The notes under the pieces were generated by a model. That model made no database searches. It was not told the origin of the DNA and worked only from the letters and a program-made list of their open reading frames with translations. From assembly GCA_045590715.1 (NCBI GenBank), contig JAZNRO010000049.1, positions 1,853 through 65,852 of the forward strand: a stretch of 64,000 nucleotides of DNA. Direction: 5' to 3'. Positions 16,989-29,316 of the stretch are shown here, in pieces. Positions within the stretch are counted from its first letter, which is position 1, and the number at the start of each line of letters is the position of its first letter. The position numbers were made by a program, and so were the translations under genes. Origin of the DNA: Eubacteriales bacterium (lineage in GTDB: Bacteria; Bacillota; Clostridia; Oscillospirales; SIG627).

Positions 16989-18272
16989 TTATGCGGTTTT
17001 CTTTCTTTTGATCTTTCCCAAAAGGTAAAAAACAAAGTGCAGGGAAAGGCCTACGGCAATGGCTACCACAAGATCAAAGATCACGGTTAAGAGGAAAGTA
17101 AGCACCAAGACCAGGATACCGGTAAAGGGCTGCGTTTTCACCATTGAAACAAATTTTCTCCACTCGCTCATATTATAGGCTACCATAAAGAGAATAGCTG
17201 CAATGGTAGGCATGGGGATCAGAGCCGCAAGAGGCATCAAAACCAAAAGAACAAGCAAGAGAACCAGCGCGTGAACCATACCCGCGATGGGGGTTCTGCC
17301 GCCGTTTTTCGCGTTGGCGGCGGTTCTGGCAATGGCACCGGTAGCGGGAATACCACCGAACATAACCGACAGCATATTGCCTGCGCCCTGGGCAACCAGT
17401 TCCGCATTGGGATTGTGCTTAGAATCGATCATAGTATCTGCTACCACGCAGGAAAGAAGGGATTCAATGGCCGCAAGGATCGCAATGGTAATAGCATCGG
17501 GCAAAAGGGACAAAAGATTTCCCGCGCTGAAATCAAGGCCGGTCAAAGTAAAAGGAGGAAGACCGGAGGGGATGGTATAAAGCTCTCCGATGGTAAATAC
17601 GCCCCCGTCCAGACCGGGAATGAATTTCACCATCAAAGCGCCAAATAAAACCGCAATGAGAGAAGGCGGAACTCTTTTTTCAAATCTGGGGTAAATAATA
17701 AGGATGGAAAGACTTACCAAACCTACCAAAAGGGCCTGCCAGGAGAAGGTGGAAAGAGAAGCAAGGTTTGCTTCCATTTTTTCAATGGTTTCTACGGGCT
17801 TTATACCGGCGGCGTACTGCAGACCGAAAAAGTCCTTCAACTGACCCAAAAGAATGGTAACGGCGATACCGGAGGTAAAACCGACGGTAATAGTAGAAGG
17901 AACGAAGCGGATCAGTCCGCCCATTTTGCAAACGCCCATGAGAATCAAAATAGCGCCTGCCATCAAGGTGGCTAAAATCAGGCCGCCCATTCCCTTCTGG
18001 GCTACCACGCCTGCTACGATGGTAGCAAAGGCAGCGGTGGGGCCGGCAATCTGGATCCGGCTTCCGCCTAAAAAGGATACCACAAAACCTGCGACAATAG
18101 CGGTATAAACACCGGCGGCAGGTTCTACGCCGCTGGCAAGAGCCAGGGCAATGGATAAAGGCAAAGCAATAATGGCAACGATGATACCGGCTACGATATC
18201 CTTTACCACCTGCTCCTTTTTCAGATCCTTTAAAACGGAAAAGAATTTGGGAAGCAAATAAAACTCTTTCAT
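16989..18272 (-). CDS. SulP-family anion transporter (transmembrane core only, no STAS domain)
   Basis: 427 aa. DIVAGIIVAIIALPLSIALALASGV and GGSRIQIAGPTAAFA motifs of SulP. The protein ends right after the last TM. Confidence 0.75.
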   Translation of the reverse strand: MKEFYLLPKFFSVLKDLKKEQVVKDIVAGIIVAIIALPLSIALALASGVEPAAGVYTAIVAGFVVSFLGGSRIQIAGPTAAFATIVAGVVAQKGMGGLILATLMAGAILILMGVCKMGGLIRFVPSTITVGFTSGIAVTILLGQLKDFFGLQYAAGIKPVETIEKMEANLASLSTFSWQALLVGLVSLSILIIYPRFEKRVPPSLIAVLFGALMVKFIPGLDGGVFTIGELYTIPSGLPPFTLTGLDFSAGNLLSLLPDAITIAILAAIESLLSCVVADTMIDSKHNPNAELVAQGAGNMLSVMFGGIPATGAIARTAANAKNGGRTPIAGMVHALVLLLVLLVLMPLAALIPMPTIAAILFMVAYNMSEWRKFVSMVKTQPFTGILVLVLTFLLTVIFDLVVAIAVGLSLHFVFYLLGKIKRKKTA

Positions 18273-19582
18273 TTTTCTTCTCCCTTTGCTTTCACTTCAT
18301 TCAAAGCCTTCAGCTTATGGTGACGGCGATGCTTTACTTCATCGCTCATGGGCTTGATTTCACCGGCGGCAGTCAGAGCCATACGGGTAAAGACCGGACC
18401 GAAGAGCTCGTAAATAAGAACCGCAAAAAGCGTAATATTGCGAATAAGATTTCCCTCTGCGCCAAGCTGCATGGCAGTGGTGCACATACCCAGAGCAACA
18501 CCGGTTTGGGGAAGAAGGGTGATACCCAGATACTTGCAAATATTTTCAGAGCATCCGGTCATTTTCGCACTGCTCATAGCGCCAAAATACTTACCCAAAG
18601 AGCGGAAGAGAATATAAACAAGACCGATAAAGACGATGGAAATTTCCGTAAATACGTTCAGCTCCAGTTCAGCGCCGCTGATAACGAAGAACAGGGCGAA
18701 AAGCGGAGAAGTCCATTTATCGGAGCGCTCCATCAGATCCTCAGACAAGGGACAGATATTGCAGAAGACCGTACCCAGCATCATACAAACAAGCAGAGAG
18801 GAAAAGCCTACGTGAACCGGGCCCAGTTCAAAATGCAGTTTGGAAAGAGATGCGGTCAAAAATACCAGGGCGATGGTAAGATTTAAACGGTTGGTATTGG
18901 AGTTAAAGAGTTTCTCCAGTTGGGTAAGAACCCAGCCCATAATAGCGCCCAGAATCAGAGAGGCAATGATCTCTACCATGGGATTTACAAAAATAGAAAT
19001 AAGATCGGGAGAACCCTGACTGGCAAGAGCCTTTGCCACACCGAAAGATACCGCAAATGCTACAAGACCTACCGCATCGTCCAGGGCTACAATGGGGAGA
19101 AGAAGCTTGGTCAAAGGACCGTCTGCCTTATACTGACGAACAACCATCAAAGTTGCGGCGGGAGCGGTAGCGGTGGCAATAGCACCCAAGGTCAGAACCT
19201 GGGCAAGGCTTATTTTATCCGGCATCATAAAGTGGATACCCAGAAGAGCCAGATCTACAAAAATAAGAGCCACCAGTGCCTGGAAAATACCGATCACCAG
19301 CGCCTGCTTGCCGGTTTTTTTCAGATCCTGCAAGCGGAATTCATTGCCGATGGAAAAAGCAATAAAGCCCAGCGCCACTTCGGACACCATAGAAAGACGG
19401 CTTACCGCGTCGGCAGAGGAAAAGCCAATGCCATTCAGTCCCAGAGCACCCAGACAGTAGGGGCCGATAAGAACGCCTGCGATCAGGTACGCGGTAACGG
19501 CGGGAAGTTTAAATTTTTTCAGGACTCGGGTCATTAAAAGACCGGTCAGAAGTGCGAATGATACGGTCAAAAGCGTATTCAT
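18269..19582 (-). CDS. Cation:proton antiporter (CPA2 / Kef-type membrane domain)
   Basis: 437 aa, polytopic. N-terminus LPAVTAYLIAGVLIGPYCLG is typical of the Na+/H+ exchanger family. ATGA overlap with the downstream SulP gene. Confidence 0.7.
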   Translation of the reverse strand: MNTLLTVSFALLTGLLMTRVLKKFKLPAVTAYLIAGVLIGPYCLGALGLNGIGFSSADAVSRLSMVSEVALGFIAFSIGNEFRLQDLKKTGKQALVIGIFQALVALIFVDLALLGIHFMMPDKISLAQVLTLGAIATATAPAATLMVVRQYKADGPLTKLLLPIVALDDAVGLVAFAVSFGVAKALASQGSPDLISIFVNPMVEIIASLILGAIMGWVLTQLEKLFNSNTNRLNLTIALVFLTASLSKLHFELGPVHVGFSSLLVCMMLGTVFCNICPLSEDLMERSDKWTSPLFALFFVISGAELELNVFTEISIVFIGLVYILFRSLGKYFGAMSSAKMTGCSENICKYLGITLLPQTGVALGMCTTAMQLGAEGNLIRNITLFAVLIYELFGPVFTRMALTAAGEIKPMSDEVKHRRHHKLKALNEVKAKGEEK

Positions 19583-21290: not shown

Positions 21291-21953
21291 CTATGAAACG
21301 ATCTTTCCGTCTGAAAGATGGATCTCTCTTCTTGCATAAGATGCCACGTGATCGTCATGGGTAACTAAAATTATGGTAATGCCACTTTCGTTCAGACCCT
21401 TCAGCACTTCCATAATGGCTTCTCCCGTTGCTGAATCAAGCTGTCCCGTTGGCTCATCTGCCAAAAGAACACCAGGCGAATTTACAATGGCTCTTGCAAT
21501 GGCAACTCTCTGCCTCTGCCCGCCGGAAAGCTGATTGGCCTTCTTCTTGGCTTGTTCCGAGAGACCCACTTTTTCCAACGCAACAAGAGCCGCTTTTTTC
21601 ACCTTACCATAAGGCATTTTGCTAAAAAGAAGAGGAAGCATAACGTTATACAAAACAGTCTGCGTATTAATGAGCGCAAAATCCTGAAGAACAAAGCCGA
21701 TCTCTTCATTGCGGATAACGGCTTTCTTTCCATCTCCTACGCCAGCGATATCTTTCTCTCTGAAAAAATAAGATCCTTTGCTTGCATCATCCAGACATCC
21801 GATAATATTTAAAAGCGTGGTTTTTCCACTTCCGCTGGCACCCCGAACAACAACAAATTCGCCTTCTTCAATCACAAGATCCACATCTCGCAGGGCATAA
21901 AAATCTTCTTTTCCTACTTTGTATATTTTTGATATATTTTTCAGTCTGATCAT
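21291..21953 (-). CDS. ABC transporter ATP-binding protein (MacB/LolD/FtsE-type)
   Basis: 220 aa. Walker A GASGSGKTT, signature LSGGQRQR, Walker B LLADEPT. 4-nt overlap with the upstream permease. Confidence 0.9.
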   Translation of the reverse strand: MIRLKNISKIYKVGKEDFYALRDVDLVIEEGEFVVVRGASGSGKTTLLNIIGCLDDASKGSYFFREKDIAGVGDGKKAVIRNEEIGFVLQDFALINTQTVLYNVMLPLLFSKMPYGKVKKAALVALEKVGLSEQAKKKANQLSGGQRQRVAIARAIVNSPGVLLADEPTGQLDSATGEAIMEVLKGLNESGITIILVTHDDHVASYARREIHLSDGKIVS

Positions 21954-23224
21954 TTTTCTGCTCCTCTCAAAAACTGTATGGGATTTTTTCCTGCCATAGA
22001 AACAAACACGGTACCTGCGGCGATCAATAAAGTGAAAATAAAGTATAGAATAACGAAGGTTTTAGTATAAGCTCCCATAAGCATAGAAGGTTGAACATAA
22101 ATAATTTCCTTTGATTCCAATATTGGCCGAATCCAAACATATAAATAACCAATAAAAGTAGGAACTATGGATATAAAAGCAAAAGTGGCAAATGCCATAA
22201 CGCCGCAACGCACTTTACTTGCTCCGCAAAGATAATAAATCGCCACTTCTTTCTCTTTGGATTTCACAGTCAAAATTACCGTGCTGAAAAAAGCAACAGT
22301 GGATACAAGTAACATAAAGATAGGCTTTGCAAGCATCATCCATATTTGGTCTTGAATCTCTTTCTGGGTCTTTTCAAGAATATCCGTTACCGATTGCGTA
22401 TGGTAAAGATCACTTAAGTCTTCTAAAACCGCATCACGCTCCTCTTGTGTCGCATCCTCTTTAAATTTCAACATTAAATTCAAATCCGGCGAACAGGAAG
22501 TATATTTTAACTTATCCAAATTTTCTTCTGTATATAATAGAAAAACCGATTTTTCACCTGTTACGAGAAAATCCGATGCAGACGCTCCCTCCGTACTGCC
22601 GTGACTTAAAGAAAAACGATAATACGGAAACTGACGCCATCCTTCCACTTGATAAGAAAAAGTTGCATCAAGTTTTGACGATGAATATAACGTTAGCTCA
22701 CCATCTTCTATATAATGCTTCATATCGCTGTTTGCAAGAAGACACCCATTTTCATCCCGCCATTTGAATCCTATTTTTTTCAATGCGGGAAAATCCTCTA
22801 ACATTTCCGGCTCCAGAAAAATGATGCTGGTCATAGATCTGGACTCTGTGGTATAAGCAAAATCTTCTTCCTCGCTAGGCACGTCGTCCCAAGTTTCCGG
22901 AGGAATATAATGAACGATATTGGTATGCCAAACCGTATAGACGCTTTCGACCCCATCCATTTCTTTTAACTCATTGATTTTACTTTTTGTCTGATTGGAA
23001 AGAGCCGTATTCATATCTTTTTCGCCGCGGGAAAAAAAGCGGTATACATAATATATATCATCTTTTCTGTCGGAATTAAATATGTCATACCCTACTCTTA
23101 AATATTCATACTTTCCCATGGCCTGTATAGAAACCAGCAGGGAAAAAGTCATCATCACAGCCAAAAGCAACGTCTGAAAACGAATTCCTCTGAAATACGA
23201 TAAAATAACCCGAATATGTTTCAT
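21950..23224 (-). CDS. FtsX-like ABC permease with large extracytoplasmic domain (copy 3)
   Basis: 424 aa. N-terminal TM, about 260-aa hydrophilic loop, C-terminal 3-TM FtsX-type block. Confidence 0.65.
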   Translation of the reverse strand: MKHIRVILSYFRGIRFQTLLLAVMMTFSLLVSIQAMGKYEYLRVGYDIFNSDRKDDIYYVYRFFSRGEKDMNTALSNQTKSKINELKEMDGVESVYTVWHTNIVHYIPPETWDDVPSEEEDFAYTTESRSMTSIIFLEPEMLEDFPALKKIGFKWRDENGCLLANSDMKHYIEDGELTLYSSSKLDATFSYQVEGWRQFPYYRFSLSHGSTEGASASDFLVTGEKSVFLLYTEENLDKLKYTSCSPDLNLMLKFKEDATQEERDAVLEDLSDLYHTQSVTDILEKTQKEIQDQIWMMLAKPIFMLLVSTVAFFSTVILTVKSKEKEVAIYYLCGASKVRCGVMAFATFAFISIVPTFIGYLYVWIRPILESKEIIYVQPSMLMGAYTKTFVILYFIFTLLIAAGTVFVSMAGKNPIQFLRGAEK

Positions 23225-23235
23225 TTTCTCCTCCT

Positions 23236-24318
23236 TTACAATATTTTTCTGTGAAGATCAAACAGTGTTTCTCGGCGATAGCGTGCTATGAAAGGAATCA
23301 GAATAATAAGAGTAGTAATCAACGTAATGAAAAGTACGATCATATAATCAAAGATGGTAAAATGAAATGATTTACCGGCAATGCTATCAAAAGAAAAAAC
23401 AGACGAAAAAGCACTGTAAAAAACAAGACCTAAAACAGAAGAGGTCATACATAAGAGAAAACATTCCCAGAAAGTAAATACAATAATATCTGATTTTGGA
23501 GCACCGACGATCATAGAAATCAAATTGTCTTTTTCAAAAGAGCCTAACAGATAGCGAAGCAAAAGAAGGAAAGAACTGACTGCAATAAAATAACATAAAA
23601 ATATCGGCAATAGTTCTCTTTGAGCATCCATCTGTATTTGCTGTACCAAACGGTGCGGTGCAACGACTGCTATACGGGAATCTGAAAAAATATTATTGAG
23701 ATACTCCTCTATCAAAGAAGTTTCTTTTTCCGTTTCCGGAACGGCAACAATTGCTATTTTTTGAGCCATTCCGCCCAAGGCTTCAAAAGCGTCAAAGGAA
23801 ATATAATACCCGTCTCCGGTATATTTCCCTACTACCTGAAATTCTTTATCCTGAAGAATGACCGTTTCCCCAAGATCACGCTCGGAAGTTCTGTCAACAA
23901 TGATTTCATTGTCCTTTAAAGAATGGGGATCTGTTGTTCCGTAAAGCCGAACGAACTTTTGTTCCCCTTTCCAAAAAGTCACAACTCCAATTTGATCTTT
24001 TTCTCCGGCAGGCGTTAATCTTCGTTCCGCCATAACATTTTCAAACAAAGAGTTCTCAACAATAGGCCCTATATCCTCAATAGAAAAGCTTGTTTCCCGG
24101 GTTAAATCTTCCTGTGCTTCTCCCTGATAAAACACTTCATATTTCCTGAAATCTGCAATAGAAGTTACTTGATTTTTATAAAGAGCCATGGTTTGTCCAT
24201 AAAAAGATGCAACAACAAAAGAACTGATTGCGCCCCCAAAAAGAAACAAGAGAAAAATGGCCTTGTTTCTCGTATAATATCCCTTCAAACGCGAAAAGAT
24301 CAAATAAATCGTTTTCAT
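23236..24318 (-). CDS. FtsX-like ABC permease (copy 2, paralog of copy 1)
   Basis: 360 aa. N-terminus ...YYTRNKAIFLLFLFGGAISSFVVASFYG and C-terminal LLLLRYLLGSF..N..S.IVG align by eye with 24343..25602. Confidence 0.65.
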   Translation of the reverse strand: MKTIYLIFSRLKGYYTRNKAIFLLFLFGGAISSFVVASFYGQTMALYKNQVTSIADFRKYEVFYQGEAQEDLTRETSFSIEDIGPIVENSLFENVMAERRLTPAGEKDQIGVVTFWKGEQKFVRLYGTTDPHSLKDNEIIVDRTSERDLGETVILQDKEFQVVGKYTGDGYYISFDAFEALGGMAQKIAIVAVPETEKETSLIEEYLNNIFSDSRIAVVAPHRLVQQIQMDAQRELLPIFLCYFIAVSSFLLLLRYLLGSFEKDNLISMIVGAPKSDIIVFTFWECFLLCMTSSVLGLVFYSAFSSVFSFDSIAGKSFHFTIFDYMIVLFITLITTLIILIPFIARYRRETLFDLHRKIL

Positions 24319-24342
24319 TGTTTACTCCTTTCGCAGATCTTT

Positions 24343-25602
24343 TTACAAATTTCTCCTTCTTAATTCAACCGGATTTTGGATCTGAAATAATAAAACAAAG
24401 GGAATCAACACGGCAACACTTACTCCCGCCATAATGAGAAAGAGTATCGCATAATCCTGAAAACTTTCAGCCAAATAATAAACCGAAGTAATATGAGAAA
24501 ACAAAGACGGCGATAACAATTTATGAAGAATAAGCCCGATCATCGCCGGAATTACGGAAAGAAGCAAACTCTCCGTAAAAACACAAGCAAAAAGTTTTCT
24601 TTTCTTCATTCCAACAATAATAGAGACCGCATTATCACCGGCAAGAGAATTCAAAAGATAGCGAAGCAAAATTAAAAATGCAACCTGAGACATAAAGTAG
24701 CAAAAAACAATGGTGATCAGTCTCTCATAAAAACTGTGCAGCTGGATTCCGCCTTCCAACGGTTCCCCATAGGCCGACGGCCGATGAAGATAATAGCTAG
24801 GACCAAAAACCGTATCCAGAGGATAAGAAACATCCGTATATACCAGGTCATAATCAGAGAAGATCTCTCTGGCCAGATCAGTGACGGGATTTTCCTTTTC
24901 ATCATAAGTTTCCGATGAAAAGAAAACGACTGCCGTAATAAGTCCGCCGCTTACCTCTTTCATGGCACTTGGTGTTATCAACGAGCAAAAAGTATTACTG
25001 GCTATTGAGGCAATTTCAAATTCCTTCCCGGCGATTACCTTCTTATCTCCGATTTTTTCGGACCAGTCAGTATAAATTATCTGATCATCCTGCAGTTCTT
25101 CATATTTCGTACTTCCTCCGATAATCTCCAATACCTCGTGTGCCGGGCCGACGCCGCTACCCACATGGAGCCATGTATTACTAGCCAGCGTCTCCCCTTT
25201 TATGATGGAATATAAAGATTTGCGCGAATGAATACCCGGATCATCAAACCTTTCCTGAAAAATAACCATTACCTGCTCGATCAAATCACTTTTTGCAAGA
25301 CGTTCTGCCTGATCCATGGTAATATGATCTTTTCTGGTATTTACATTAATAAATCCGGTTCCATCTTCTGCCAAATCTGCTCCGTTAATTTCACCGGCAT
25401 AATCCCAAGTAAGATAATACGTGCGATAAACGGGAGCATCCTTGGTAACTCCGGACTGACGGATCAAGGCATAGGCCTCTCCGGAAAAGCTTGCCAAAAC
25501 GAAAGCATTTAAAATTCCGCCTAAAATGAAAAGAGTAAAAATCAACTTATTTCGCAAAAAATATGCAAAAATACGGTTTTTCACCAGCAAAAGATTTTTC
25601 AA
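24343..25602 (-). CDS. FtsX-like ABC permease (copy 1)
   Basis: 419 aa. N-terminus ...YFLRNKLIFTLFILGGILNAFVLASFSG, C-terminal ILLRYLLNSLAGDNAVSIIVG. Same topology as copy 2. Confidence 0.65.
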   Translation of the reverse strand: MKNLLLVKNRIFAYFLRNKLIFTLFILGGILNAFVLASFSGEAYALIRQSGVTKDAPVYRTYYLTWDYAGEINGADLAEDGTGFINVNTRKDHITMDQAERLAKSDLIEQVMVIFQERFDDPGIHSRKSLYSIIKGETLASNTWLHVGSGVGPAHEVLEIIGGSTKYEELQDDQIIYTDWSEKIGDKKVIAGKEFEIASIASNTFCSLITPSAMKEVSGGLITAVVFFSSETYDEKENPVTDLAREIFSDYDLVYTDVSYPLDTVFGPSYYLHRPSAYGEPLEGGIQLHSFYERLITIVFCYFMSQVAFLILLRYLLNSLAGDNAVSIIVGMKKRKLFACVFTESLLLSVIPAMIGLILHKLLSPSLFSHITSVYYLAESFQDYAILFLIMAGVSVAVLIPFVLLFQIQNPVELRRRNL

Positions 25603-25630
25603 GATTTGTCTCCTTTCTGCTTTTAAGGGT

Positions 25631-25657
25631 GCCCACCGCAGGATGTGTGCGGTGGGC
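25631..25657 (-). promoter_or_regulatory. GC-rich intercistronic stem-loop between the secreted-protein gene and the first permease gene
   Basis: Perfect 10-bp stem GCCCACCGCA / TGCGGTGGGC, 7-nt loop. No clear U-run on the coding strand. Confidence 0.5.
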
Positions 25658-25725
25658 CGGAAATTTAAAATTTAGAAATCTTCACACCTTTGCAAAACAA
25701 TAAATCGAAAGATATATCAATTATT

Positions 25726-26175
25726 TTAATACTCAGTGGCATACACAGTAAACCAATAATTATTGCTGGTTCCGTTTACTACGCGGCCGCCGTTAAAATC
25801 AGCAATTTTCATGAATTTCTTATCTTCAGCGGTCCCGCTCTTGGGAGCACCTAAAGTTGCCCAACCAGAATTAATACTGGAAGAACCGTTAGAATCCGTG
25901 CGCTTGTAATTACTTTCGTTATTGGCACGGAAGATCTCTACCCAAGCATAGCCGGAAGTCATACCGGAAGCTCCGAGCATAGTTGCTTCAGCACTGGCTC
26001 CAAGAGTAGTAGAATTAAAACTATAGACCCAATTCAGCGCATTGTTGAAAACTCCGTTTTGCCCTGTCTTCAAAGAAAGCCTAACATCATCATAGAAAGA
26101 GGCGCCGAACACTGGAACTGCAATAGCTGCGATCAAACAAACGATCAGCAATGTGGAAATAACGATCTTTTTCAT
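25726..26175 (-). CDS. Small Sec-secreted protein (about 149-aa precursor), first gene of the ABC/FtsX operon; possible bacteriocin-like product
   Basis: ATG 26175 with RBS AAAGGAGAAA. Signal peptide MKKIVISTLLIVCLIAAIAVPVFGA. The mature part is Gly/Ser/Asn/Thr-rich and ends ...NNYWFTVYATEY. Confidence 0.7.
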   Translation of the reverse strand: MKKIVISTLLIVCLIAAIAVPVFGASFYDDVRLSLKTGQNGVFNNALNWVYSFNSTTLGASAEATMLGASGMTSGYAWVEIFRANNESNYKRTDSNGSSSINSGWATLGAPKSGTAEDKKFMKIADFNGGRVVNGTSNNYWFTVYATEY

Positions 26176-26394
26176 TGTATTTCTCCTTTTCTGTATTTTT
26201 TCATTTATTTTATAAATACGCTTTTTCTTTTTTGGGGTGAAAAATACTCCTTTGTATTTATTCACCGATCAAATGCGAAAAAGCATCCGCACACTCAAAT
26301 CAATGAAGGCGGAAATATTTGACTTAAAAGTCAAAAAAATCACCTCCCTTTCTCATTCTGCATCAATTTGTGAATAATTGATGTTTCTAACATT

Positions 26395-26458
26395 AGTATA
26401 TATTGCCAATTACTTATTGTCAATAGCTATTGACAAAAAATATAAAAAAATTTAATAT
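26395..26458. promoter_or_regulatory. Divergent promoter pair sharing a perfect 20-bp palindrome (candidate PadR operator)
   Basis: Palindrome TTGTCAATAGCTATTGACAA (26417-26436). Each arm supplies a TTGACA -35. Minus strand: TTGACA, 17 nt, TATACT (26423-26395). Plus strand: TTGACA, 16 nt, TAATAT (26431-26458). Confidence 0.6.
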
Positions 26459-26502
26459 AACAATAGTCCTATCCGCTATTTCAAAATCTTAAGGAGTAGT
26501 TT

Positions 26503-26895
26503 ATGGAAAAAGACCTGGACGCTATCGTTTCGGAGGTTTCTACCAATTTCAAACGCGGAACCACGGAAATGCTACTTTTATCCCTTTTGACTTTAAAAGA
26601 CTGGTATGTATACGATCTTTCCAAAACATTGAAAAAGGCAAGCAACGAAAAGTTTGATATTCAGGGGCCTTCCCTGTACACTGCACTTTATCGTATGCAA
26701 GATCACGGTTTTGTTTCAAGCCATCGGGTCTTGATCGGACAACGGACAAGGATCTACTATCACCTTTTACCAAAAGGTGAAGAATATTTGAAAAAAATTC
26801 TGAAAGAGTATTTTGAAGTGGGCAGCGGTATTCATTCCGTGCTACAATACACAGAACTAAACGAAAAAAACGCGCAAAACGATGAGGAACCCTGA
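26503..26895 (+). CDS. PadR-family transcriptional regulator
   Basis: 130 aa. ...GTTEMLLLSLLTLKDWYVYDLSKTL...SLYTALYRMQDHGFVSS...RIYYHLLPKGEEYL winged-helix PadR pattern. RBS AAGGAG. Confidence 0.85.
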   Translation: MEKDLDAIVSEVSTNFKRGTTEMLLLSLLTLKDWYVYDLSKTLKKASNEKFDIQGPSLYTALYRMQDHGFVSSHRVLIGQRTRIYYHLLPKGEEYLKKILKEYFEVGSGIHSVLQYTELNEKNAQNDEEP

Positions 26896-26896
26896 T

Positions 26897-27286
26897 ATGG
26901 ATGAGAAATTTCTAAAAAATTATTACAAAAAAGTACGAAAAGAATTAAAATGCCCCAGGAAAATGAAAAAAGAGATCCTGGCAAATATGAAAAGCGATAT
27001 TGAGGAATATTTCGCGGAGTTTCCGGATGAAACAGAGTCTGGTTTTATCGACCGCTTTGGAGAACCCAAGCAGTACGCCAAGATATATATAACTACGTTA
27101 AATAACGACGTATTAAAGAAAAAGCTATCCCGAAATGTCTTTGGCCTCCGATTATGGCTTTTCTCCATTATCATTATGCTTTTGATCTTTATTGCAGTCC
27201 TTATCGGTATGATCCGCTGGAATAAGAGAACAACTCCCGTATTTTACACACAAGAGATCGTATACGAATCTCAACTACAAAAATAG
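26897..27286 (+). CDS. PadR-associated membrane protein (DUF1700/HAAS-like N-domain plus one TM)
   Basis: About 129 aa. Helical N-domain ...EILANMKSDIEEYF...FGEPKQYAKIY, then TM LWLFSIIIMLLIFIAVLIGMI. ATG 26897 is 1 nt after the padR stop; alternative start at 26882. Confidence 0.6.
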   Translation: MDEKFLKNYYKKVRKELKCPRKMKKEILANMKSDIEEYFAEFPDETESGFIDRFGEPKQYAKIYITTLNNDVLKKKLSRNVFGLRLWLFSIIIMLLIFIAVLIGMIRWNKRTTPVFYTQEIVYESQLQK

Positions 27287-27294
27287 AAAAGTCA

Positions 27295-27335
27295 AACAAA
27301 AAAAACAGCACCCGATTTGGGTGCTGTTTTCATTT
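27295..27335. terminator. Bidirectional terminator between convergent genes
   Basis: Stem ACAGCACCC / GGGTGCTGT, loop GATTT, A-run upstream, T-run downstream. Confidence 0.75.
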
Positions 27336-27348
27336 TTATCAGTATGCT

Positions 27349-29316
27349 TTATTTGTCTACGCCGTAGTCGATCTTTTCGTTTTCTTTCTTCAGTACGCGC
27401 TTATACATGGCGTTTGCCAAAGTAAAGATGTCAAAGTATCTTTCCAGTTCGTATTCGTATTTACCGAAGTCTGCAATGAACTTATTGTAAAGTTCTTTTG
27501 CTTCCTTGCCGGCGCCAACGGATTTTAAGATCATCACGTCTGCAATGCCGCAAGCGTATTCCAGATATCTGCGAAGGATTCTGTATGCTACGGTCTGGGT
27601 ACGAACGGGGCTGTTCTTATGGGCTTCTACGAAGGGTTTGAACTCTTCTACCAAAGGACGAACCTGGCGCAGTTTTTCTGCCATAGCGGGATTGTAGTAC
27701 TGGCCGATCTCAGGATTAGCGGAGTTTTCACCTGCCATAAACTTGTGGTCGATGAGTTCTCCCAGTTTTTCAAGGAAAGTAACGACCTCTTTCCAGTCTT
27801 CGCCGTAGATGTGGCTGAAATAGTCTTCCTTCAGTGCTTCAAAATCAAGGTCGGTATCAAAGAGGGTGTGACCGTAAGTATAGAAGGGGAAACCGTTGGG
27901 GAAGAAGCCTCTCTGGGAGCCGTCTTCAATGGTACCGCCGAACTTGTGGTACTTGTAGCCCTTGATATCCTCATTGATGATCTGGGCGAAGCGGGTAGTA
28001 GAAAATTCATAGGCCATATTGTACCAGAAGTGGTATTCATAAACCAGAATATCTACATTGCAAGTGTCCTGCCAGGATTTGGCAAAGGCAATACCGGTAT
28101 CGCTGGCAGTAGGCAGATCCACCTTGTTTCTTACGTACTTGGGAAGATTTGCGGTAGAAACGGGACGCTGGGCAACGCCCTCGGTATAAGTACGGGTAAT
28201 GGGCGCAAGGAGAATGGTAAATCTATCGGGGTGATTCAGTCTTTCTACTTCGGGAGCAAAAAGGGTGTCGTAATAGCAGATCATTACGATATGGGTATCA
28301 AGACCGCGGCGGATCAGTTCGTCGTCGATCTCATTTAAAAGGATCATGTACCAGTCGGTAGCAGTCTTCTTCACACACTCTTCGCACTCGCAGTGGTTAT
28401 TTACCATATCGGAAAGCCAAACGTGGAGAAAGTCTACGTTGGTAGAGATCTCTGCATAGTCAACAACGGCCTTGGCAACCAGTCTGCGTGCCTCGGGATT
28501 GGACATACAGAAGTTGGTGAGCCAGGGGTCGCCGTGATAGATGGCTCTCTTACCGTCAAACAGGGCAATATAATCTTTTGCGGCAATATATTCGGGGCGC
28601 TTCTCCCACTCTTCTTCGGTAAATCTGGTTTCGGGGTCAATGCCAAGACCCTTGGTGGTCCAGCCATGGCCGATATCGTGGAACTGAAGACCGCGCTTGG
28701 AAATTTCAACCTCGCACTGCTTCTTCCACTGAACCAGAGTTTCCTTGGTAACAGGTTCGGGCTCGCGGTTTGCGGTGTTGTTACGATGTTCGTAATAGAA
28801 GTTATAATAGCCGGGAGCAAAGAACTCCAGCATAAAGATATTCATACCCAGCTTGGGAGCAAAATCAATGGCCTCCAGCATATTGGACTGGTATTCTGCG
28901 CCTTCGTTGCACCAACCTCTATAGCGGTTTGATGCCATCTTATGGAATTTTACGCCTTCTACTTCCTTCATAGGAATGATCTCGCCGTCCACACCTGGGA
29001 AAAGCCAGCGGCAACCGTTCATGGTAAGGAAGCGGTAAACAGCAAGAAGTACGCTTCTTACGTTGTTACCGGAAATGATACCGCCGTCTTTGTCGGTATC
29101 GATATGCAGGATATCATCCAGGTTATTATCAGGGGCCTCGCTGGTATCAAGACCGAAATCAGCCATCACACCCAGGCGGAAGCCTTCTTTTGCTTCGGGG
29201 TCATAAGCAATCGGAATTTCGCCGCATTCGGGCATCATCATTCTCAAATACTTTTTGAGTTCTTCTGCCGCGAAATCTACCACAGGGCTTGACGTAATTT
29301 TTTTAATGGTGTACAT
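27349..29316 (-). CDS. Cytoplasmic DUF4838-like putative glycoside hydrolase
   Basis: 655 aa, no signal peptide. N-terminus ...VVDFAAEELKKYLRMM... and a central TIM-barrel-like region resemble DUF4838/GH20-related proteins as I remember them. The family call is tentative. Confidence 0.45.
   Translation of the reverse strand: MYTIKKITSSPVVDFAAEELKKYLRMMMPECGEIPIAYDPEAKEGFRLGVMADFGLDTSEAPDNNLDDILHIDTDKDGGIISGNNVRSVLLAVYRFLTMNGCRWLFPGVDGEIIPMKEVEGVKFHKMASNRYRGWCNEGAEYQSNMLEAIDFAPKLGMNIFMLEFFAPGYYNFYYEHRNNTANREPEPVTKETLVQWKKQCEVEISKRGLQFHDIGHGWTTKGLGIDPETRFTEEEWEKRPEYIAAKDYIALFDGKRAIYHGDPWLTNFCMSNPEARRLVAKAVVDYAEISTNVDFLHVWLSDMVNNHCECEECVKKTATDWYMILLNEIDDELIRRGLDTHIVMICYYDTLFAPEVERLNHPDRFTILLAPITRTYTEGVAQRPVSTANLPKYVRNKVDLPTASDTGIAFAKSWQDTCNVDILVYEYHFWYNMAYEFSTTRFAQIINEDIKGYKYHKFGGTIEDGSQRGFFPNGFPFYTYGHTLFDTDLDFEALKEDYFSHIYGEDWKEVVTFLEKLGELIDHKFMAGENSANPEIGQYYNPAMAEKLRQVRPLVEEFKPFVEAHKNSPVRTQTVAYRILRRYLEYACGIADVMILKSVGAGKEAKELYNKFIADFGKYEYELERYFDIFTLANAMYKRVLKKENEKIDYGVDK

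Follow-up and report, generated by a model that had tools for sequence, protein, structure and literature searches.

We analysed a 64,000-nucleotide stretch of DNA (the window) from the assembly of an uncultured gut Clostridia bacterium (Eubacteriales bacterium, GCA_045590715.1; contig JAZNRO010000049.1, forward-strand positions 1,853 to 65,852). The assembly is 1.46 Mb long, consists of 132 contigs and is 90% complete. At 21291-27286, the window contains a 6-kb island of low GC content, which is a horizontally acquired operon of a rare and uncharacterised cassette family. The operon encodes a small protein with a Sec signal peptide, three FtsX-like permeases and an ATP-binding cassette (ABC) ATPase of the MacB/LolD type, and it is flanked by a divergent pair of genes for a PadR-family regulator and its HAAS-domain partner. 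What the operon encodes is an accessory, fast-evolving ABC machine of the MacB type, heteromeric and linked to a Sec-secreted protein, under the control of a membrane-linked repressor pair. An initial annotation of the sequence had proposed a bacteriocin and immunity locus in the style of lactococcin 972 (Lcn972), or a novel export system.

Organization of the island

The listing of open reading frames (ORFs) contains the five minus-strand genes in the order given by the initial annotation. The small gene (25726-26175) comes first and encodes a precursor of 149 amino acids. It is followed by permease 1 (24343-25602, 419 amino acids), permease 2 (23236-24318, 360 amino acids), permease 3 (21950-23224, 424 amino acids) and the ATPase (21291-21953, 220 amino acids). 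Permease 1 starts with TTG after a GGAG ribosome-binding site. The gaps between permeases 1 and 2 and between permeases 2 and 3 are 24 and 11 nucleotides, respectively, and the start of the ATPase gene overlaps the stop of permease 3, so these genes form a tight operon. The gap between the small gene and permease 1 is 123 nucleotides and contains a hairpin. On the plus strand are padR (26503-26895, 130 amino acids), encoding a winged-helix regulator of the PadR family, and the HAAS gene (26882-27286, 134 amino acids), encoding a PadR partner with a single transmembrane helix (TM). A terminator scan identified a bidirectional terminator-like hairpin at 27301-27331, with a 13-bp stem and T-runs on both strands, which marks the regulator-side end of the island. 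None of the ORFs of the island is a modification or leader-peptidase gene.

The initial annotation had ascribed an accessory character to this locus, and our comparisons bear this out. The GC content is 36-42% over 21.3-27.3 kb and 45-49% in the flanks. We searched for the small protein in its own genome and in 40 relatives, of which 19 belong to the same genus, 5 to the same family and 16 to further families of the order, and found no match; permease 1 is absent from the same 40 genomes. We conclude from the GC dip and from these absences that the island is accessory.

The small secreted protein

The small gene starts at an ATG preceded by an AAAGGAG ribosome-binding site, and the ORF listing opens the frame at an upstream GTG (26265). 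The protein begins with MKK, continues with a hydrophobic segment at residues 4-22 (19 residues, Kyte-Doolittle 2.9) and then reaches a predicted cleavage site between VFG and AS. The mature part comprises ~124 amino acids, with a mass of 13.5 kDa and an isoelectric point (pI) of 6.1, and contains 43% glycine, serine, asparagine and threonine and 15% aromatic residues. Both the signal peptide and the composition agree with the initial annotation. Since the protein carries its own Sec signal, a novel export system in the literal sense is unlikely. We also considered and rejected a lipoprotein: the sole cysteine, residue 13, stands in a poor lipobox (L-I-V-C) and is followed by a cleavage site for type I signal peptidase.

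Homology searches returned the protein itself and nothing else, both in a word-indexed library of 5.8 billion sequences and in an exhaustive phmmer search of 1.84 billion representatives. No Pfam or NCBIfam model matched at E <= 0.1, and neither these models nor a reading of the sequence revealed hydrolase, coiled-coil or lipobox features. With the PADLOC defence models, neither the small protein nor the permeases nor the HAAS protein produced a match.

The permeases and the ATPase

Hydropathy analysis shows that each permease has a first transmembrane helix (TM1) at about residues 20-38, an extracytoplasmic loop of ~195-265 amino acids and three further TMs, which is the topology of MacB and FtsX. 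The four TMs of permease 3 are at residues 19-37, 302-320, 338-356 and 390-408, with a loop of ~265 amino acids. The three FtsX-like permeases with large outward loops described by the initial annotation are thus confirmed in topology. The Pfam FtsX model scores 24.9 bits for permease 1, 29.1 bits for permease 2 and 24.7 bits for permease 3, and with a cut-off of 25.5 bits it is formally passed by permease 2 only. The model of the MacB periplasmic core domain (MacB_PCD) matches permease 2 alone and weakly (16.2 bits, cut-off 27).

As had been noted, permeases 1 and 2 are paralogs; they align over their full length with 27% identity (E 3e-24), and neither shows BLASTP similarity to permease 3. 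We refer to permeases 1 and 2 as permA type and to permease 3 as permB type. A permB profile matched no solved structure by sequence.

The ATPase is of the MacB/LolD type, again in agreement with the initial annotation. It scores 105 bits with Pfam ABC_tran, and among the NCBIfam models it scores 214.9 bits with LolD (TIGR02211), 213.1 bits with TIGR03608, 208 bits with MacB and 200 bits with FtsE; the LolD, TIGR03608 and MacB scores are all below the equivalog cut-offs. In the PDB, its best match is 5xu1, the ATPase of a pneumococcal MacAB-like pump (E 4e-63), and further matches are MacB (5lil, E 6e-57) and BceA (E 7e-45). By permease topology and ATPase, the locus is predicted to belong to the MacB/FtsX class of type VII ABC systems.

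Control elements

The operon promoter and a palindrome share a control region at 26395-26436, which was delineated by a promoter scan, an inverted-repeat search and conservation in a second strain (L007, described below). The operon promoter is strong (TTGACA-17-TATACT, minus strand), and the two divergent promoters match the scan at 11/12 and 10/12 positions. Their -35 boxes both come from a perfect 20-bp palindrome (26417-26436), which is the likely PadR operator. A second palindrome, TTGACTTTTAAGTCAA, is located at 26318-26340 in the 213-nucleotide leader of the small gene, within a segment that L007 lacks. The TTGAC half-site of the main operator recurs in it, arranged the opposite way, and this palindrome may serve PadR as a second site or form a hairpin in the RNA.

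The divergent regulator pair of the initial annotation consists of two distinct proteins. PadR scores 47 bits with its Pfam model (cut-off 27), and its partner scores 34.4 bits with Pfam HAAS (cut-off 27) and 25.2 bits with DUF6120, with one TM at residues 93-111. Their genes overlap at 26882-26895, and a stand-alone padR adjacent to a HAAS gene is the arrangement that defines a HAAS-PadR dyad. It has been suggested that such dyads take the place of two-component systems in envelope signalling, and the HAAS partners in the published survey include FtsX-like/MacB-PCD modules, fused or linked (Ravi et al., mSystems 2024, PMC11237479).

The hairpin between the small gene and permease 1 (25631-25657, minus strand) has a 10-bp stem without a U-tract and is located directly 5' of the permease 1 ribosome-binding site. 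Its predicted folding energy is -24 kcal/mol (z-score -3.85). In L007, which lacks the small gene, a hairpin of -23.7 kcal/mol is found at the same spot; it shares its 3' arm with that of the window but has another 5' arm. Because a strain without the small gene keeps a hairpin there, this element cannot be regarded as just the terminator of the small gene. A search of Rfam gave nothing above noise in the leader and the intercistronic region.

A strain pair differing in the small gene and the pump

L007 is a 2-kb contig from another sample that overlaps the control half of the island. It shares with the window the start of the HAAS gene, padR, the palindrome, the promoter and the first 42 codons of permease 1. 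The regulators are 92% identical in DNA overall, and up to 97-98% identical inside padR. In the pairwise DNA alignment, L007 lacks the segment at 25644-26360 (703 bp aligned to gaps, a span of 717 bp), which holds the small gene and its 213-nucleotide leader. In the permease 1 region, DNA identity is 95% over the initial 169 aligned bases, which comprise the 3' arm of the hairpin, the ribosome-binding site and the 42 codons. At ~25475, after codon 42 and TM1, there is a breakpoint in DNA identity, and the remainder of permease 1 is 52% identical in DNA. At the protein level, the identity is 95% in TM1, 34% in the extracytoplasmic domain and 51% in TM2-4. The absence of the segment and the drop within permease 1 show that the two strains differ jointly in the small gene and in the pump allele, while the regulators stay the same.

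A second case was found within one genus, where one locus (L045) has a small gene and two others (L044 and L043) lack it. Their permA proteins are 61-70% identical.

Cassettes in other Clostridia

We define the cassette here as a small secreted protein, permA, permB and a MacB-type ATPase. A profile of permB-type permeases, which scores permease 3 of the window at E 1.6e-161, was searched against whole genomes sampled from the order (401) and from the class (399). Cassettes were found in 7 and 9 of these genomes, respectively, or ~2% of the sampled Clostridia. Pattern-based locus searches with the permB alignment in collections of genome and metagenome contigs yielded no confirmed relative. 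PadR is not the only type of regulator associated with the cassettes, as an AraC regulator was found at L047 and a LytTR regulator with a kinase at L048.

We read 17 loci. Their permA proteins have 341-439 amino acids and their permB proteins 394-433 amino acids, and an ATPase of ~220 amino acids is encoded at nearly all loci whose downstream region was read. The full order of permA, permB and ATPase is present in the window and in L009, L022, L023, L024 and L025; L008 shows a C-terminal fragment of permA followed by permB and the ATPase, L026 has no ATPase after permB, and L043-L051 were checked for permA and permB only. The initial annotation had called three permeases for one ATPase unusual, and this is supported by the comparison, as every other cassette locus found has one permA and one permB. 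In L008, a gene similar to permease 1 (60% identity) is directly followed by a gene similar to permease 3 (44%) and by the ATPase (77%), with no permease 2 in between. The permease 3 homolog of L009 is 25% identical. We built a maximum-likelihood tree from 18 permA proteins, in which permease 1 and its L007 homolog form a group with permease 2 as its sister (support 95/89) and L009 as the next outgroup (support 96/98). This position identifies permease 2 as an old, lineage-specific duplicate of permA.

Eight of the 17 loci (the window, L009, L022, L023, L024, L045, L050 and L051), spread over the entire permA tree, encode a protein of 139-166 amino acids with a signal peptide immediately upstream of permA. 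L022 encodes two such proteins. The cassette small proteins are hydrophilic, 12.5-15.5 kDa in mass, neutral to acidic (pI 4.6-7.7) and 12-18% aromatic, and none of the nine has a Pfam, NCBIfam or PDB sequence match even at E <= 10. The signal peptide of the window protein resembles that of L009, the nearest cassette, and the protein has a marginal similarity to that of L023 (E 0.003-0.03) through a common GYAW/F.EI...NSGW stretch. In the two pairs of clearly homologous small proteins, the small proteins and their permA proteins have similar identities (29% vs 21% in one pair, 26% vs 26% in the other), which fits co-evolving partners. The whole cassette evolves fast, and the missing detectable relatives of the window protein are best explained by this fast evolution together with the rarity of the cassette.

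In an independent family of Clostridia, a profile of the L045 and L051 small proteins matches 5 of 25 genomes. Three of these homologs adjoin permA, one is in a decayed cassette (L057) and one stands alone at a contig end (L055). The L055 genome also contains two further cassettes, both without a small gene. In L057 (G702:C13:33200-38500), a small-gene remnant of 62 amino acids is accompanied by a permA truncated at its N-terminus, a permB split into ORFs of 166 and 124 amino acids and an ATPase remnant of 64 amino acids; cassettes thus vanish by decay as well as by clean deletion. Two cassettes have additional genes. In L022 (G229:C24, 2294-4418), permA is preceded by the two small secreted proteins (166 and 157 amino acids) and a single-TM protein of 190 amino acids, so this locus could be a multi-effector or effector-plus-accessory variant. 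L051 (G771:C78, 38-3759) is preceded by a secreted protein of 897 amino acids and a membrane-anchored protein of 350 amino acids.

Genomic neighbourhood of the island

The island is flanked by genes for an M20 dipeptidase and a DUF4838 protein. In congeners, these flanking genes are ~50% identical and rearranged, so exact insertion boundaries could not be assigned. No precise empty site was found in the congeners, and neither mobility genes nor flanking direct repeats were seen around the island. A tblastn search of the PLSDB plasmids gave no match to permeases 1 and 3.

The DUF4838 protein beside the island (27349-29316, minus strand, 655 amino acids) belongs to a family that is greatly expanded in the genus, with up to 8-11 paralogs in some genomes, often in tandem arrays (for example, six in G013:C182 and six in G012:C21). 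Near the other end of the island, a SulP-Kef pair at 16989-19582 is kept in congeners (L052 and L053), where it is linked to an OPT transporter and a protein of 114-120 amino acids. Both of these are missing in the window between Kef and the M20 peptidase, which indicates local rearrangement around the island.

Comparison with known systems

The closest known parallels are the locus of Lcn972 and scbABC, the streptococcin B locus of Streptococcus pneumoniae, which is a proven locus of the Lcn972 type. The Lcn972 cluster on plasmid pBL1 consists of lcn972-orf2-orf3, in which orf2-orf3 are putative immunity ABC genes (PMC4055356). As there, a small, unmodified, Sec-dependent protein comes first in our locus, followed by membrane proteins with FtsX-like helices and an ATPase of the MacB/LolD clade, components that are thought to confer immunity in the known system (PMC4055356). 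The presence and absence of the small gene is similar as well: scbBC occurs without the Lcn972-like toxin gene scbA in 27.5% of pneumococci, so natural variants lack the toxin gene and keep the transporter genes, as L007 does relative to the window (PMC11796350). The differences are also clear. The mature protein has 124 amino acids, 13.5 kDa and a pI of 6.1, whereas Lcn972 has 66 amino acids and is a cationic beta-sandwich of ~7.5 kDa whose antimicrobial action involves binding to lipid II. The membrane partners are three separate 4-TM permeases of two types and 360-424 amino acids, instead of one large 7-TM DUF1430/TIGR01654 protein, and control is by PadR and HAAS, whereas the known loci use ComE/ComR or a constitutive promoter. 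The Lcn972-style architecture suggested by the initial annotation therefore stands (a Sec-secreted protein first, then FtsX-like membrane proteins and a MacB-type ATPase), but family membership is not supported. By analogy, the locus may work like the Lcn972 and scbABC loci, yet is no member of that family.

The machine itself resembles MacB, LolCDE and FtsEX, in which 4-TM permeases have a large outward domain between TM1 and TM2 and work with an ATPase of the MacB type, either separate or fused. LolC/LolE likewise combines two kinds of permease subunit with a single ATPase. In contrast to these systems, our locus has no adaptor (MacA/YknX) and no outer-membrane, lipoprotein or hydrolase partner, it has three permease genes rather than one or two, and it is accessory and sporadic rather than core.

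BceAB, YxdLM-YxeA and VraDE, which are peptide-antibiotic resistance modules of Firmicutes, also combine an FtsX-domain permease and an ATPase with an envelope-sensing regulator and act at the outer face of the membrane. In Bacillus subtilis, YxeA is a small secreted protein of unknown role that is encoded with yxdLM. However, BceAB has a single 10-TM permease with the loop between TM7 and TM8 and is regulated by BceRS, whereas the permeases here are split into 4-TM proteins under PadR and HAAS. In addition, the small gene is first in our operon, and no cassette small protein has a DUF1093/YxeA match. With three separate 4-TM permeases and PadR and HAAS as regulators, we ruled out a system of the BceAB type. 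Another known arrangement is Vex123-Pep27 of Streptococcus pneumoniae, in which the FtsX-type permeases Vex1 and Vex3 flank the ATPase Vex2, next to the gene for a small secreted peptide and a signalling pair. It differs from the window in the length of Pep27 (27 amino acids), in the permease-ATPase-permease order and in its two-component regulator VncRS.

The regulators agree with published HAAS-PadR dyads in having a stand-alone padR with an overlapping gene for a membrane-anchored HAAS protein directly after it (PMC11237479). They differ in that the HAAS protein here is a minimal one-TM form that is not fused to FtsX, and in that the divergent target operon contains a secreted-protein gene in one strain only.

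Discussion

Taken as a kind of system, a Sec-secreted small protein with an FtsX-type ABC pump for immunity or resistance is already known. What is new here is the unannotated group of secreted proteins, the split permA/permB pump with a third permease, the control by a HAAS-PadR dyad, and the strain-level swap with a breakpoint at TM1.

We tentatively favour, at somewhat less than an even chance, the reading that the operon encodes a secreted antagonistic protein together with a cognate self-protection pump, in analogy to Lcn972 and scbABC. This is suggested by the effector gene being first in the operon, with a hairpin ahead of the pump genes, by the co-divergence of the small proteins and permA, by the joint swap of the small gene with the pump ectodomain, and by the frequent loss of the small gene from loci that keep the pump. 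Several observations weigh against it. The small gene is absent in 9 of the 17 loci, including the near-identical L007, so that in about half of the cassettes the pump must have a function of its own. The regulators of L007, which are of an envelope-stress type, control the pump alone, and this fits a resistance module at least as well. The lone homolog L055 (G423:C37, 4975-5529, minus strand; E 1e-21 to L045 and L051) has no permease downstream, although it lies 50 bp from the contig end. For a class II bacteriocin, it would be unusual that the window protein is neutral, that its counterparts are mostly acidic, and that these proteins have roughly twice the size of Lcn972. AlphaFold2 gave the mature protein a mean confidence (pLDDT) of 33 from the single sequence and 43 from a 9-row alignment, values too low to assign a fold. 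Finally, homology among the small proteins is proven for two pairs (L023 and L024, E 1e-10 to 1e-12; L045 and L051, E 4e-17), and the window protein compared with a profile of the other eight is not significant in hhalign; for this reason, we do not claim a single sequence family of small proteins. The initial annotation had regarded transporters without the small protein as counting against a bacteriocin. We note that their occurrence weakens this reading without refuting it, because scbABC and scbBC have a similar pattern of presence and absence (PMC11796350).

The main rival, which we regard as somewhat less likely but serious, is a resistance or envelope-stress pump under PadR and HAAS that acts on foreign envelope-acting compounds, as BceAB, YxdLM and VraDE do, with the small protein as an optional accessory (a decoy, a binding protein or a sensing cofactor) and not a toxin. 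The proposed role of HAAS-PadR dyads as envelope-stress substitutes for two-component systems, and their link to FtsX/MacB-PCD modules (PMC11237479), point this way, as do the L007 regulators driving a pump without the small gene, the nine cassettes that lack it and the variety of regulators at L047 and L048. The neutral-to-acidic small proteins could also bind cationic peptides. However, the split 4-TM pairs do not resemble the single 10-TM permeases that go with BceRS, the YxeA family is not matched by any small protein, and a dispensable accessory would not be expected to stand first in the operon, to co-diverge with permA over the tree and to change together with the pump allele between strains. 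We consider it quite unlikely that the machine is a mechanotransmission device without transport, in which ATP hydrolysis releases, activates or repositions the small protein or another surface factor, as in FtsEX with PcsB, CwlO or EnvC, or LolCDE with lipoproteins. To our knowledge, the MacB/FtsX-family machines (MacB, LolCDE and FtsEX) act by mechanotransmission in every solved case, and the FtsE score of the ATPase, the LolC/LolE-like pairing of permA and permB and the similar rates of evolution of the small protein and permA are compatible with such a device. On the other side, the small protein shows no hydrolase, coiled-coil or lipobox features and is missing from half of the loci, and an accessory island absent from relatives does not point to a core cell-wall function. 

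Two further explanations are very improbable. One is that the small protein does belong to the lactococcin 972 family, as a highly diverged member accompanied by the canonical immunity transporter. The gene order and the Sec route are the same, the ATPase scores 213.1 bits with TIGR03608, the ABC model of the Lcn972 group, and permease 3, alone among the permeases, has a faint match to the Lcn972-associated membrane-protein model TIGR01654 (14.6 bits, E 0.008). Both models are far below their cut-offs (254.85 and 189.35 bits, respectively), and the ATPase has no specific affinity for its model, as LolD scores equally (214.9 bits). None of the nine small proteins matches the Lcn972 models of Pfam and NCBIfam or the sequence of the Lcn972 structure in the PDB at E <= 10, and size, charge and the 4-TM FtsX pairs in place of a 7-TM DUF1430 protein separate the locus from that family. 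The searches suggested by the initial annotation thus speak against membership. The other explanation, to which we give similarly little credence, is that the small ORF is a remnant or a chance ORF in the inserted leader segment and that the locus is simply a three-permease ABC transporter. The failure of both large protein searches to find a homolog and the absence of the ORF in the sister strain L007 would agree with this. A chance ORF would hardly have a strong ribosome-binding site, a canonical signal peptide resembling that of L009 and an open frame of 149 codons in AT-rich DNA, and seven other loci encode equivalent secreted proteins at this position, including two clearly homologous pairs.

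If the operon does encode an antagonistic protein and its self-protection pump, it may work as follows. Permease 1 or 2 would pair with permease 3 to form 4-TM heterodimers on an ATPase dimer, similar to LolC/LolE, and the assembly would be a MacB-type mechanotransmission machine whose large outward domains act at the outer face of the membrane. The 13.5-kDa protein, presumably beta-rich, would exit by Sec and act outside as a bacteriocin-like antagonist, and the pump would shield the producer by taking the secreted protein off its envelope target. PadR would repress both promoters until the membrane-anchored HAAS protein senses an envelope perturbation, and the hairpin ahead of permease 1 may set or stabilise the ratio of small-gene to pump transcript. 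Strains with the pump and without the small gene would be immune non-producers, and the two permA paralogs may provide two recognition specificities.

A more far-reaching proposal, which we think unlikely, is that the island represents one allele of a swappable recognition cassette. Recombination in TM1 of permease 1 would exchange the outward part of the pump together with its matched secreted protein, while the HAAS-PadR pair and the promoter remain fixed. The secreted proteins would then be a new, very fast-evolving effector family that the ectodomains recognise and do not merely expel, and the duplicated permA would allow a single ATPase to serve two specificities, the strain's own effector and that of a competitor.

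Gut and rumen Clostridia harbour a wealth of antagonism systems that await characterisation, and the annotation of this cassette family currently stops at 'FtsX-like permease' and 'ABC ATPase', with a secreted component that matches no protein family. Should the secreted proteins prove antibacterial, they would constitute a new class of non-cationic, Sec-exported bacteriocins of 12-15 kDa whose immunity is pump-based. As accessories of a resistance pump, they would instead provide the first functional handle on ligand recognition by split Gram-positive MacB-type machines. The strain pair, with the same regulators, with or without the small gene and with different pump ectodomains, is a natural experiment for cognate toxin-immunity specificity, and it also offers a defined target promoter for the proposed HAAS-PadR signalling dyad.

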